From a virus (lineage: Duplodnaviria > Heunggongvirae > Uroviricota > Caudoviricetes): a stretch of DNA of 33,074 bases. The notes under the pieces are model-generated. The model was not told the origin of the DNA. It did not search any database and saw nothing but the letters and a program-made list of their open reading frames with translations. This document shows positions 26,591 through 29,833 of the stretch, in pieces; the first letter of the stretch is position 1; every line of letters begins with the position of its first letter. The DNA is taken from the IMG/VR virus record IMGVR_UViG_2737471830_000002; one strand, written 5' to 3'. Made by a program: the position numbers and the translations under genes.

Positions 26591-26896
26591 ATGACAGTAG
26601 TCATTACTTATCTGGCTGACGATAACGCCAGAAATCGCCGCAGAGCACGCAGACAGGCTCAACGTGAACAGGCAATGCAAGAACAGCGATTGGCACGAAA
26701 AATTGCGCTAAAGCTCTCTGGTTGCGTCAGAGCAGATAAAGCAGCATCACTCGGAAGCCTTCGCTGCAAGAAGGCAGAAGAAGTCGAGAGTAAACAGAAC
26801 CATATTTACTACCGCAAGCCACGCAGTGAAATGGGTGTGACCTGTTCAGGCCGCCAGAAGCAACGCGGAAAATCAATTCCAGCTTATTACGATTGA
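26591..26896 (+). CDS. N: N-type transcription antiterminator
   Basis: Arginine-rich motif NARNRRRARRQAQREQ at the N-terminus; C-terminus ...KPRSEMGVTCSGRQKQRGKSIP parallels lambda N; GGAGG RBS. Confidence 0.8.
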   Translation: MTVVITYLADDNARNRRRARRQAQREQAMQEQRLARKIALKLSGCVRADKAASLGSLRCKKAEEVESKQNHIYYRKPRSEMGVTCSGRQKQRGKSIPAYYD

Positions 26897-26904
26897 GGTG
26901 AGAT

Positions 26905-27156
26905 ATGGAATTTCATGAAAGTGCGATTTGTGATTTTCGCGCTAACGCAAATTCAGTAAAACCACAGCCAATTGCAGTTCTTTTTAAAACAATGGGTGCG
27001 TGGGCTGTTTTATGCTTCGCCGCTGACGACACTGACGCAAGAATGGCAATAGGCCAAGAGATGGAGATGGACCCGACAAACGATGAATTCATAATTTATG
27101 GCGCTCCATCTAATTACTTACTTGATACCTGCAACATTTACAACAAGGCTGCCTGA
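26905..27156 (+). CDS. Hypothetical protein (83 aa) at the ral-equivalent position
   Basis: ORF directly after N with GAGGTGAG RBS; followed by an intrinsic terminator. Confidence 0.45.
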   Translation: MEFHESAICDFRANANSVKPQPIAVLFKTMGAWAVLCFAADDTDARMAIGQEMEMDPTNDEFIIYGAPSNYLLDTCNIYNKAA

Positions 27157-27175
27157 TGGTGGCCTTTATTTTTGG
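27145..27175 (+). terminator. Intrinsic terminator (tL1-like)
   Basis: AAGGCUGCC-UGAU-GGUGGCCUU stem-loop followed by UAUUUUUGG. Confidence 0.5.
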
Positions 27176-27230: not shown

Positions 27231-27292
27231 GGAGCAATGTCGCTCGTAACTAAACAGGAGCCGACTTGTTCTGATTATTGGAAATCTTCTTT

Positions 27293-27320
27293 GCCCTCTA
27301 ATGTGAGGGCGATTTTTTAT
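27293..27320 (+). terminator. Intrinsic terminator
   Basis: GCCCTC-TAATGT-GAGGGC followed by GATTTTTTAT. Confidence 0.6.
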
Positions 27321-27338: not shown

Positions 27339-27707
27339 ATGTCAAACATCAAAAAATACATCATTGATTACGACTGGAAAGCATCAATAGAAATTGAAAT
27401 CGACCATGACGTAATGACAGAGGAAAAACTTCACCAGATTAATAATTTCTGGTCAGACTCTGAATACCGACTCAATAAACACGGCTCTGTATTAAATGCT
27501 GTATTAATCATGCTGGCACAACATGCTCTGCTTATAACAATTTCAAAAGACCTAAATGCATATGGTGTTGTTTGTGAGTTCGACTGGGATGATGGAAATG
27601 GTCAGGAAGGATGGCCTCCAATGGATGGTAGTGAAGGAATAAGAATTACCGATATCGACACATCTGGAATATTTGATTCAGATGATATGACTATCAAAGC
27701 CGCCTGA
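27339..27707 (+). CDS. Hypothetical acidic protein (122 aa), candidate anti-defence factor
   Basis: ORF with GAGGA RBS, bracketed upstream by two terminators; Asp/Glu-rich (for example DWDDGNGQEGW, ITDIDTSGIFDSDDM); no recognised family. Confidence 0.55.
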   Translation: MSNIKKYIIDYDWKASIEIEIDHDVMTEEKLHQINNFWSDSEYRLNKHGSVLNAVLIMLAQHALLITISKDLNAYGVVCEFDWDDGNGQEGWPPMDGSEGIRITDIDTSGIFDSDDMTIKAA

Positions 27708-27782
27708 GCGCGGCTTTACCGCATACCAATAATGCTTCACGAGAGGCATTTTCATTATGCAATCAAATATAAGGAGTTACCC

Positions 27783-27917
27783 ATGATGCACTTTCAGCTC
27801 GCGGGTAGCGGCGTCATGTCCGCTTTCTACCCGCACGAATCTGAATTATCACGCCGAGTTAAACAATTAATCAGAGCAGCAAAGAAACAACTGGAGGCGT
27901 TATGCGCAATGAAATAG
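27783..27917 (+). CDS. cIII: CIII-like protein (FtsH inhibitor family)
   Basis: 44 aa from ATG at 27783 (AAGGAG RBS); HFQLAGSGVMSAFYPHESELSRRVKQLIRAAKK parallels the lambda CIII central helix. Confidence 0.5.
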   Translation: MMHFQLAGSGVMSAFYPHESELSRRVKQLIRAAKKQLEALCAMK

Positions 27918-28054
27918 CCATTAATCACCAGATGCTTCGTGCTGCACAGAACAAAGCAGTAATAGCCAGATTTATTGGTGATTCAAAAATGTGGCTTGAA
28001 GCAAATAAAGCGATGAAATCAGCTATCAACCTTCCGTGGTATCGCAGGAAATGA
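27902..28054 (+). CDS. kil: Kil-like small protein
   Basis: 50 aa; start overlaps the cIII-like stop, GGAGG RBS; VIARFIGDSKMWLEANKAMKSAI resembles the lambda Kil core as recalled. Confidence 0.4.
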   Translation: MRNEIAINHQMLRAAQNKAVIARFIGDSKMWLEANKAMKSAINLPWYRRK

Positions 28055-28129
28055 GTTTTACAGATAACTGGTCAGACGAAGAATTCATTCGTCAGATGAA
28101 AGATTTAATCGGTAACGAAGGAGATATTC

Positions 28130-28300
28130 ATGTCACTTGCAACCACAGTGAAGGAGAGCAAGTTACAGAGACGCATGTACACGCAGAAAGCTCTCTGGTA
28201 TCGCCATAATGGTGACCGCGAAGGAATGCGGGTATGCCTTAATTTGTCCCGAGTCGAAGTATTAAATCAGCGTTATTTCCTTGGGCCGTGTCCATTCTGA
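28130..28300 (+). CDS. Hypothetical small protein (56 aa); alternative overlapping ORF at 28051..28209
   Basis: ATG at 28130 with AAGGAG RBS, ends 8 nt before the annealase start; which of the two overlapping frames is expressed cannot be decided from sequence alone. Confidence 0.3.
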   Translation: MSLATTVKESKLQRRMYTQKALWYRHNGDREGMRVCLNLSRVEVLNQRYFLGPCPF

Positions 28301-28308
28301 GGTGAATT

Positions 28309-29016
28309 ATGGATTTGAACAAATTCGATGAGCCATTCAGCCCTGAAGATATCGAATGGCGAATACAGCAAAGCGGTAAAACACGCGATGGCAAGGTGTG
28401 GGCTATGGTGCTGGCTTATGTCACGAACCGGGCAATCATGAAACGCCTGGACGATGTTTGCGGCAAAGCAGGATGGCGCAATGAATACCGCGATATTCCC
28501 AACAACGGCGGAGTTGAATGCGGCATATCAATCAAGATTGATTCCGAATGGGTAACCAAATGGGATGCTGCTGAAAACACGCAGGTAGAAGCCGTCAAAG
28601 GTGGTCGTTCCGGTGCAATGAAGCGCGCTGCCGTTCAGTGGGGAATCGGTCGGTATCTGTATAACCTTGAGGAAGGTTTCGCACAAACATCTCTCGATAA
28701 AAAGCAGGGGTGGCACAGGGCAAAACTGAAGGATGGAACAGGATTTTACTGGCTCCCTCCATCGCTGCCGGGATGGGCAATCCCAGCATCAGATAACAAA
28801 CCATCACCAGAAAATACCAACCAGAAATCTCCATCGGTTGACTGCGAACAAATCCTGAAAGACTTCAGCGATTATGCGTCAACAGAAACTGACAAGAAAA
28901 AACTCATCGAGCGTTATCAGCGTGACTGGCAATTAATGGCTGGCAACGAGGAGGCGCAGGCTAAATGCGTTCAGGTAATGAACATCAGAGTTAACGAACT
29001 AAAACAGGCGGCATAA
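28309..29016 (+). CDS. Rad52-family single-strand annealing protein (Sak-like recombinase)
   Basis: 235 aa; GGRSGAMKRAAVQWGIGRYLYNL resembles the Rad52 N-domain signature; immediately precedes ssb. Confidence 0.6.
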   Translation: MDLNKFDEPFSPEDIEWRIQQSGKTRDGKVWAMVLAYVTNRAIMKRLDDVCGKAGWRNEYRDIPNNGGVECGISIKIDSEWVTKWDAAENTQVEAVKGGRSGAMKRAAVQWGIGRYLYNLEEGFAQTSLDKKQGWHRAKLKDGTGFYWLPPSLPGWAIPASDNKPSPENTNQKSPSVDCEQILKDFSDYASTETDKKKLIERYQRDWQLMAGNEEAQAKCVQVMNIRVNELKQAA

Positions 29017-29523
29017 ATGGCAAGCAGAGGCGTAAATAAGGTGATTATCCTTGGTCGGGTAGGACAAGACCCGGAAGTTCGATACTCACCATCAGGAACA
29101 GCGTTCGCTAACCTGACAATAGCCACGTCAGAACAATGGCGAGATAAAAATACTGGCGAGCAAAAGGAATTGACTGAATGGCATCGTGTTGCTGTATCCG
29201 GGAAACTGGCTGAGGTCGTGGGGCAGTATGTGAAAAAAGGTGATCAGATTTATTTCGAGGGAATGCTGAGAACCAGAAAGTGGAAAGACCAGTCAGGGCA
29301 AGACCGTTACACAACCGAGGTTCATGTCGGAATTAATGGCGTGATGCAAATGCTTGGCGGCATTGGCGACAGCAAACAACAAGCAGCCAGCAAGCAATCA
29401 CAGAAGCCACAGCAGCAATCATCACCAGCACAACACAACGAACCTCCGATGGATTTTGACGACGATATACCCTTTGCACCAGTAACTCTCCCCTTCCCTC
29501 GTCACGCTATTCACGCAATTTAA
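29017..29523 (+). CDS. ssb: Single-stranded DNA-binding protein with C-terminal extension
   Basis: OB-fold N-terminus [44 protein letters not shown]...; acidic tip [11 protein letters not shown] is followed by [15 protein letters not shown] before the stop. Confidence 0.9.
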
Positions 29524-29536
29524 TCAGGAGAAAATC

Positions 29537-29833
29537 ATGCCAGCGCCTCTGTATGGTGCGGATGACCCGCGCCGCTGTTCCGGCAATTCCATATCGGAGG
29601 TGCTGGATAAATTCAGAAAAAACTACGACCTGATAATGTCGCTACCGCAGGAAACGAAAGAGGAAAAGGAATTTCGCCATTGTATATGGCTTGCAGAGAA
29701 AGAAGAACGCGAGCGAATTTACCAGACATCAATCCGACCATTCCGCAAAGCCACATATACCCACTTCCCTGAATATATCGACCCGCGCCTGCGTAATTAC
29801 CGCTCACGCTATGGCGCTATCAGTAATGACTGA
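29537..29833 (+). CDS. Hypothetical protein (98 aa)
   Basis: ORF with GGAG RBS following ssb. Confidence 0.45.

Follow-up and report, generated by a model that had tools for sequence, protein, structure and literature searches.

Orthodox cIII and kil genes followed by two overlapping small open reading frames, of which one appears to be selected in the overlap, in the early operon of a lambdoid phage

We analyzed a stretch of 33,074 nucleotides of viral DNA (Caudoviricetes; IMG/VR record IMGVR_UViG_2737471830_000002), referred to below as the window, and concentrated on positions 27783 to 28300. Read on the plus strand, this segment would fall midway along a lambdoid prophage's leftward early (PL) operon. 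The genes of the operon come in the order N, an ea10-like gene, cIII, kil, ORF3, ORF4, a gene for a Rad52-like annealing protein, SSB, and Abc2. The features that matter for the analysis are these:

27339 to 27707, plus strand: ea10-like gene (DUF2528, 122 aa), upstream of cIII; Pfam PF10800, E = 1.8e-46.
27783 to 27917, plus strand: cIII, 44 aa; Pfam PF08134, E = 2e-30; phrog_550, E = 2.6e-13.
27902 to 28054, plus strand: kil, 50 aa; Pfam PF06301, E = 1.7e-20; phrog_2055, E = 1.2e-35, full length.
28051 to 28209, plus strand: ORF3, 52 aa, the equivalent of Sf6 gp30; small and acidic, at the position of Arf; phrog_2123, E = 1e-41, end to end.
28118 to 28123, plus strand: AAGGAG, Shine-Dalgarno sequence for ORF4, with a 6-nt spacer to the ATG at 28130; it lies inside ORF3 codons 23 to 25.
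28130 to 28300, plus strand: ORF4, 56 aa, the equivalent of Sf6 gp29, HkaM family; phrog_1723, E = 9.4e-36.
28309 to 29016, plus strand: Rad52/22-family single-strand annealing protein, 235 aa; Pfam PF04098, E = 5e-26.
29017 to 29523, plus strand: phage SSB, 168 aa; Pfam PF00436, E = 1.6e-36.
29537 to 29833, plus strand: Abc2 anti-RecBCD protein, 98 aa; Pfam PF11043, E = 1e-62, full length.

All four ORFs of the segment were present at these coordinates, both in the ORF listing and on direct reading of the sequence. Chance ORFs are plentiful here, with 55 of at least 25 aa within 3.3 kb. Because small ORFs are so abundant by chance, the reality of the four rests on homology and substitution pattern and not on the openness of their frames. 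The DNA of the region is 93 to 100% identical to the annotated regions of HK97, HK022, Sf6, and mEpX2 and 93 to 99.8% identical to that of many phages and prophages; 1,119 of 5,426 complete E. coli genomes matched part of it, and 243 cover at least 80%. The module is an ordinary one, already known and catalogued in lambda-like prophages, and it has small value as a discovery, since HK97, HK022, and Sf6 have carried annotations of its genes for some two decades. The gene identities, the frame-specific selection, the synteny, and the predicted fold reported below come from the present analysis. Promoter and terminator scans of positions 27783 to 28300 returned nothing exceeding shuffled expectation, an Rfam scan of the region (E <= 1) returned no RNA family and a single chance match to mir-15, and RNA folding of the region revealed no unusual structure (z = -0.9).

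By their profile matches, cIII and kil are orthodox members of their families. CIII scored 104.7 bits against PF08134 (cutoff, 25), with residues 2 to 38 covering positions 1 to 37 of the 37-position profile, and Kil scored 72.6 bits against PF06301 (cutoff, 27.6) over profile positions 1 to 31 of 31. Both values lie above the curated thresholds and bear out the sequence-only reading, which had proposed a cIII-like ORF of 44 aa and a kil-like ORF of 50 aa. The ATG of cIII at 27783 is preceded by AAGGAG at 27771 to 27776, with a 6-nt spacer, and the ATG of kil at 27902 is preceded by GGAGG at 27893 to 27897. The CIII annotation is carried by the HK97, Sf6, and E. coli RefSeq equivalents, and "host cell division inhibitory peptide Kil" is the PGAP name in a 99.8% identical prophage. 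As families, CIII proteins are lysogeny factors that inhibit the FtsH protease and stabilize CII, and Kil peptides inhibit formation of the FtsZ ring and cause filamentation; the two genes of the window would be expected to act likewise.

The location of cIII just upstream of kil, and overlapping it, in the PL operon is common to HK97, Sf6, lambda, and P22. The overlap had been likened to that of lambda, and the likeness holds, with 16 nt shared in the window (27902 to 27917) versus 32 nt in lambda. Lambda cIII and kil belong to the same families by Pfam, come in the same order, overlap partially in the PL operon, and follow an ea10-like gene; lambda ea10 equals the ea10-like gene of the window in length and position. 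The correspondence is not complete, however. CIII of the window is of the HK022/HK97 type (PF08134) and reaches only E = 0.17 against the lambda-type family PF02061, and whereas lambda continues after kil with gam-bet-exo, the window continues with ORF3, ORF4, and the Rad52/22 gene.

ORF3 and ORF4 overlap by 80 nt (28130 to 28209), with ORF4 in the +1 frame relative to ORF3. Because the ORF3 frame has a stop at 28207 to 28209, no single uninterrupted frame spans both ORFs. That these are two mutually overlapping small ORFs, as the sequence-only reading described them, is supported by their end-to-end PHROG matches (ORF4 aligns with positions 3 to 58 of the 58 in phrog_1723) and by the substitution pattern given below. 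The PHROG label "recombinase" on both small ORFs is misleading; it cannot be right for phrog_2123 and phrog_1723 because the profiles are only 52 and 58 aa long.

ORF4 has the marks of a genuine gene, served by a Shine-Dalgarno sequence of its own. A GGAG is found 5 to 9 nt upstream of its ATG in every lineage compared, those without ORF3 included. Homologues with 34 to 66% identity came from one phage each of Erwinia and Enterobacter, from prophages of Salmonella, and from metagenomes; many of them, including those of the two phages and of the Salmonella prophages, stand alone without an overlapping ORF3. PGAP annotated ORF4 in only some of the RefSeq records examined; it often leaves the gene out, and ORF4 merits consistent annotation.

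The alignment of 22 diverse members of the family is essentially ungapped, with S10, A21, E43, F50, P55, and F56 invariant and L51 and G52 at least 90% conserved. These residues define the C-terminal motif F-L-G-x-x-P-F-COOH, and the protein of the window ends in YFLGPCPF. An AF2 model built from a 16-sequence alignment (pLDDT, 91.4) contains helices at residues 7 to 27 and 30 to 49 and a lower-confidence tail. The product of ORF4 is confidently predicted to be a 56-aa helical hairpin with a flexible tail ending in the invariant FLGxxPF-COOH. A Foldseek comparison of the model with the PDB returned generic helical hairpins only, none at E <= 0.001, and searches of NCBIfam, Pfam, and PDB sequences with ORF4 gave no match.

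A named relative is HkaM of HK620, which was first annotated "arf" by position. The ORF4 family and HkaM align in hhalign with 92.7% probability (E = 4e-7), and intermediate sequences link the two. Like ORF4, HkaM is a small helical protein encoded directly upstream of a recombinase gene. The two differ in length (62 aa in HkaM, 56 aa in ORF4), are about 33% identical, and end in ...FLSVPSELPF and YFLGPCPF, respectively; hkaM follows kil directly, without an ORF3, and its partner is Sak4 rather than Rad52/22. Hutinet et al. (2018, PMC5928155) called HkaM an orphan and knew of no function for it. It was dispensable in that study, since Sak4 and SSB alone gave the oligonucleotide recombineering activity of the whole module (PMC5928155).

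To follow selection in the two frames, we gathered 138 loci with an ORF4 homologue; 77 unique 250-nt cores also had an ORF3-like start. On a neighbor-joining tree of the 77 cores, 315 substitutions were placed by parsimony; the omega values take transition/transversion weighting into account. In the segment that belongs to ORF3 only (codons 2 to 26), the ORF3 frame had an omega of 0.55, a synonymous excess (p = 0.01), and both remaining frames had values of about 2. For the overlap, we obtained 0.28 when the changes were read in the frame of ORF4 (p = 1e-9) and 3.1 when they were read in that of ORF3. The segment of ORF4 beyond the overlap gave an omega of 0.15 (p = 3e-26). Pairwise Nei-Gojobori (NG86) comparisons of diverged lineages were in agreement and yielded dN/dS values of 0.19 to 0.39 for ORF3 codons 2 to 26, and, in the overlap, of 1.4 to 6 in the ORF3 frame and 0.12 to 0.42 in the ORF4 frame.

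Changes that are silent in ORF4 numbered 3.3 per site in the overlap, where they alter ORF3, as opposed to 5.1 per site in the part belonging to ORF4 only. Thus, ORF3 adds little constraint to the overlap. Silent changes in the ORF3-only part numbered 2.4 per site. Because the first 80 viral loci were picked for 100% ORF4 identity, which biases ORF4 dN downward, the conclusions on selection rest on the ORF4-synonymous rates and on the cross-lineage pairs. Judged by these substitutions, purifying selection in the overlap acts on the ORF4 frame only. ORF3 does look constrained in its N-terminal part, before the overlap, and there only, with a signal of moderate strength. The sequence-only reading had held that the sequence alone cannot decide. 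This was a fair statement, but the comparative data do decide, and they point to the ORF4 frame as the one selected in the overlap.

ORF3 starts at the end of kil: its ATG (28051 to 28053) overlaps the kil stop codon TGA (28052 to 28054) in the tetranucleotide ATGA, by which ORF3 would be translationally coupled to kil. Constraint in ORF3 appears limited to codons 1 to 26 (28051 to 28128), and the tail overprints ORF4; the last 26 codons of ORF3 would simply continue across the ribosome-binding site of ORF4 and across its first 26 codons. Since the Shine-Dalgarno sequence of ORF4 falls on residues 22 to 25 (NEGD or SEGG), conservation there is in part not at the protein level. The functional part of ORF3 would be its N-terminal 16 to 26 residues (MSFTDNWSDEEFIRQM...), a module that also heads a very common 35-aa protein. 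The first 16 residues, MSFTDNWSDEEFIRQM, are shared by ORF3 and this 35-aa protein, MSFTDNWSDEEFIRQMNKMLNQHKEQEKDDDSDSE, on near-identical DNA; in phage Kapi1 the 35-aa protein is encoded ahead of a RecT-type module. In diverged lineages of the Enterobacter type, the N-terminus of ORF3 is kept with conservative changes (MSIADTWSEDAFVRLMQDLIGSEGG...) and the tail is freely different. ORF3 had no Pfam or NCBIfam family and no PDB sequence match, and an AF2 model of it, made without an alignment, was of low confidence (pLDDT, 64) and was set aside. The ORF3 frame encodes the peptides MSFTDNWSDEEFIR and DLIGNEGDIHVTCNHSEGEQVTETHVHAESSLVSP.

The N-terminal part of ORF3 contains a WSDEEFI motif that recalls Arf of P22 (PF17585). 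P22 Arf is likewise small and acidic and occupies the slot right after kil, and ORF3, like arf in P22, has kil on one side and the gene for the annealing protein on the other. P22 Arf (MQHEFSDEEFIALIS...) and ORF3 both have (W/F)SDEEFI near the N-terminus; the tail of P22 Arf is unrelated to that of ORF3, and P22 Arf overlaps no second gene. In statistical terms the likeness is weak. ORF3 gave no match at E <= 1 to Pfam PF17585 (Phage_Arf; threshold, 27 bits), a profile against which P22 Arf itself scores 116.6 bits. Against the PHROG Arf family, phrog_2445, it reached no better than E = 0.011, over 22 residues, and hhalign aligned it with Arf at 36% probability over 16 columns with 44% identity. 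According to a review of lambdoid recombination modules (PMC12315714), it is not yet understood what Arf and Abc1 do at the molecular level, and the section of that review on other proteins of the early left operon does not mention the ORF3/ORF4 pair (PMC12315714).

The product of ORF3 is probably a short peptide, acidic and coupled to kil, with its functional part at the N-terminus. We infer that it is translated; both downstream ORFs probably are, but they are not equivalent. Taken as a whole, the locus is best read as orthodox cIII and kil genes followed by two unequal ORFs: ORF4, a real gene whose product would be a tip-docking recombination accessory, and ORF3, which would be coupled to kil and have a functional N-terminus and an unselected tail. 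We hold this reading to be the probable one, with room left for others.

The strongest competitor, which we consider possible although rather unlikely, is that only ORF4 is a gene. The ORF3 frame would then be nonfunctional and positions 28055 to 28129 a leader or spacer, conserved on account of the ribosome-binding site of ORF4 and of its use as a homologous "boundary sequence" for module exchange. Lineages without ORF3 indeed have an untranslated spacer of about 70 to 80 nt at the same place, and PGAP annotated ORF3 in none of the RefSeq records examined. The dN/dS of 0.19 to 0.39 in codons 2 to 26 of the ORF3 frame argues against a mere spacer, as the other two frames carry no such signal, but the unconstrained tail of ORF3 is what a nonfunctional frame would have. 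Mutant alleles also fit such a frame: one prophage has TGA for TCA, a nonsense mutation, at ORF3 codon 8 and two have a replaced N-terminus, so ORF3 is dispensable at least in some resident prophages. One ORF3 variant, on the other hand, has tolerated a 21-nt triplication in frame.

Mosaicism bears on the same question. BLAST alignments break at 27900 (kil start), at 28051 (ORF3 start), near 28100 (inside ORF3 after codon 17), and at 28301 (ORF4 end); thus, the tail of ORF3 travels with ORF4 as a single block. The joint near 28100 lies within ORF3, and the first 50 nt of the ORF are near-identical across otherwise different modules, which fits a recombination linker. Against this stand the ORF3 start, kept with its ATGA start/stop overlap behind two different upstream genes, and the 35-aa ORF that begins with the same N-terminus on at least 1,000 contigs. 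The motif shared with P22 Arf, a genetically defined protein, also speaks for a coding function of this part of ORF3.

Considerably less probable is true dual coding, in which the tail of ORF3 would be functional as well (for example, as an acidic, disordered segment) and would be kept open while its sequence is free to vary. Three or four diverged lineages have the ORF3 frame open over 52 to 56 codons, with a tail free of premature stops, but the absence of ORF4-silent stops from the ORF3 tail (0 seen, 2 to 3 expected) is not significant; the comparison has low power, as only about 0.6 site-equivalents could give rise to such a stop. Tails are acidic in all variants, including the nonoverlapping 35-aa form (...DDDSDSE), and in P22 Arf; this acidity can, however, be a by-product of the purine-rich Lys, Arg, and Glu codons of ORF4 read out of frame. 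Early stops in that frame occur in two of the four ORF4-only lineages, which favors dual coding; against it, the tail has often undergone nonconservative changes (A to P, E to K, S to R).

We also compared the pair with its closest annotated counterparts. Sf6 genes 32-31-30-29 and HK97 cIII-kil-gp42.1/gp42 are the same genes in the same order, with 98 to 99% DNA identity over the shared part. Of the two Sf6 proteins, gp29 matches ORF4 with 100% identity and gp30 matches ORF3 with 98%, and their genes have the same 80-nt two-frame overlap. In HK97 the counterparts of the pair are gp42.1/gp42, and its PHROGs are 2123 and 1723; the pair is uncharacterized in Sf6 and HK97 alike; the gene downstream is Erf in HK97 and that of a Rad52/22 protein in the window. 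A literature search on HK97 gp42, Sf6 genes 29 and 30, and SSB-tip mimics found no functional study of ORF3 or ORF4.

In the HK97 record, a single ORF of 83 aa spans the region, and several fusion proteins of 81 to 82 aa, one of them on 36 contigs, are present in databases. Such entries could suggest that ORF3 and ORF4 are halves of one gene, split by a frameshift mutation or joined by programmed +1 frameshifting, a reading that we regard as very improbable. Two frames were found in 112 of 113 unique homologous regions, HK97 being the sole exception, and aligning HK97 with the window and Sf6 shows that its 83-aa ORF depends on a pair of single-base insertions spaced by 7 nt. Among the database fusions, the junction takes at least seven forms, a pattern that fits independent 1-nt deletions or sequencing errors and not a designed fusion or a programmed frameshift. 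Moreover, lineages that lack ORF3 have the ORF4 homologue by itself, with a GGAG and an ATG of its own. Inspection of the overlap by eye revealed no slippery or prfB-like +1 site, and the folding of the RNA was, as noted, unremarkable. We rejected programmed frameshifting on the varied fusion junctions together with ORF4's own start. For annotation, the fused gp42.1 of HK97 is an outlier.

Least probable of all is that one of the small ORFs has the anti-RecBCD function that the sequence-only reading had suggested, as gam has in lambda or abc in P22. The post-kil gene of lambda is gam and the slot lies inside a recombination module, but neither ORF3 nor ORF4 has any similarity to Gam, Abc1, or Abc2 in Pfam, NCBIfam, or PHROGs, and ORF4 is present also in modules with their own Abc2. 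A complete Abc2 gene lies apart from both ORFs, farther downstream at 29537 to 29833, and on these comparisons neither ORF is the anti-RecBCD gene of the module.

The other role suggested for one of the small ORFs, an accessory function in recombination, fared better. It is plausible by position, ORF3 lying in the arf slot with its SDEEFI motif and ORF4 abutting the recombinase gene, but ORF3 fails Phage_Arf. A recombinase gene starts 1 to 13 nt after the ORF4 stop (8 nt in the window) in all 138 of the loci with a readable downstream gene, a count that overstates the synteny, as the loci are not phylogenetically independent, but that spans four unrelated recombinase families. The downstream recombinases were HK97-type ERF in 60 loci, a divergent ERF in 6, Rad52/22 in 53, AAA_24 in 12, and Sak4 in 6; in 1 of the 138 loci, ORF4 was followed by HNH and then ERF. 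A scan of genome contigs returned six close relatives only. Because ORF4 is always found directly ahead of a recombinase gene, we infer that its most likely role is that of an accessory to recombination by the phage module; the dispensability of HkaM in recombineering with Sak4 and SSB counts against such a role.

How such an accessory might act is suggested by its C-terminus. We suspect, by analogy, that ORF4 acts through its Pro-Phe tip; as a guess, it would dock this tip onto a partner protein, as SSB tips do. The tips of SSB (...DDDIPF in E. coli, ...NDYPPF in HK620) share with the ORF4 family the Pro-Phe-COOH end on a flexible tail. The residues that precede Pro-Phe are acidic in SSB tips, whereas they are Gly, Pro, and Cys in ORF4, and ORF4 is without an OB fold, unlike SSB; the tip resemblance is a lead only. 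Modules of the kind that encode the ORF4 family use SSB tips to recruit the recombinase, and the NDYPPF tip of HK620 SSB was required for Sak4 stimulation and for the recombineering activity (PMC5928155). Thus, Pro-Phe tips matter in such modules.

More speculatively, the ORF4/HkaM family may mimic the C-terminal tip of SSB, with the helical hairpin holding out the invariant Pro-Phe-COOH at the end of its flexible tail. We think this unlikely, though worth stating. As a mimic, the tip would occupy the SSB-reading pocket of recombinases or of SSB-interacting enzymes of the host (ExoI, RecQ, RecJ, RecO, PriA), and docking would tune or protect phage single-strand annealing. If true, tip mimicry would account for the travelling of ORF4 with four unrelated recombinase families. 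ORF4 is a cheap candidate for an accessory factor in phage recombination or recombineering.

Two single-nucleotide insertions, separated by 7 nt, set the HK97 record (L001, AF069529) apart from all other 112 unique sequences compared. They lie in the region covering ORF3 and ORF4 (HK97 locus 1831-2082, window 28051-28300), which are equivalent to Sf6 gp30 and gp29. As a result of these insertions, the HK97 annotation consists of an 83-aa gp42.1 and an in-frame gp42. Possible explanations are a sequencing error in the record, which dates from 2000, and a double frameshift peculiar to the strain. The protein database also contains ORF3-ORF4 fusions of 81 to 82 aa with seven different junctions; one fusion, P0021, is carried by 36 contigs from E. 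coli. Loss of any single nucleotide within the 80-nt overlap joins the two frames. The features are listed below, in window coordinates or their equivalents.

26591-26896, N-like antiterminator (phrog_271, E=2.6e-35)
27145-27166, 27291-27312 and 27731-27750, terminator-like hairpins with T-runs, 5' of cIII
28051-28100, ORF3 N-terminal variants (loci L039, L076 and L112)
28051-28300, fusion proteins P0001, P0005, P0021, P0023, P0024, P0027 and P0031
some 80 nt 5' of the ORF4 homologues, spacer (loci L016-L019, L107 and L108)

The three loci with a variant ORF3 N terminus are viral contigs. In one of them, codon 8 is a nonsense codon; the other two carry unrelated sequence in place of the N terminus, with ORF4 intact. 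In a Salmonella Chester protein (P0051), the heptapeptide EFIRQMK of the ORF3 N-terminal region (21 nt, equivalent to 28081-28101) is tandemly triplicated in frame, an arrangement present on 7 contigs. Where ORF4 occurs without ORF3, the lineages have in common a conserved, untranslated spacer (…CTACTCGTCCGGCTATCGCAGACGGGAAGCGCACAACCAAATTTCAGGAG…) that includes a small hairpin.

Annotation of the two genes varies with its source. The PHROG profiles for 28051-28300, 2123 (52 aa) and 1723 (58 aa), bear the label "recombinase," which has spread to RefSeq phage annotations (NC_005344, NC_002167, and others). In an E. coli prophage with 99.8% identity (L024), PGAP gave this region no annotation, and in another locus (L025) it called ORF4 but not ORF3.

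Of the three terminator-like hairpins upstream of cIII, one lies immediately 5' of the cIII Shine-Dalgarno sequence; their number is no higher than the shuffled expectation. In HK97, HK620, and Sf6, tL-type terminators are annotated at the same place. The score of the N-like protein fell short of the Pfam N_peptide cut-off. Its arginine-rich N terminus appears unlike that of phage 21 N, and its C-terminal part appears similar; the protein may be a mosaic N.

In the prophage SSB (29017-29523), the canonical tip DFDDDIPF is internal rather than terminal, being followed by a 15-aa extension that holds a second LPF. The same extension is found at another locus (L015, 3414-3881) on an SSB whose OB domain differs, whereas Sf6 gp27 ends in ...DDSDIPF. 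With its tip internalized, the extended SSB should not bind partners that require a free C-terminal carboxylate.
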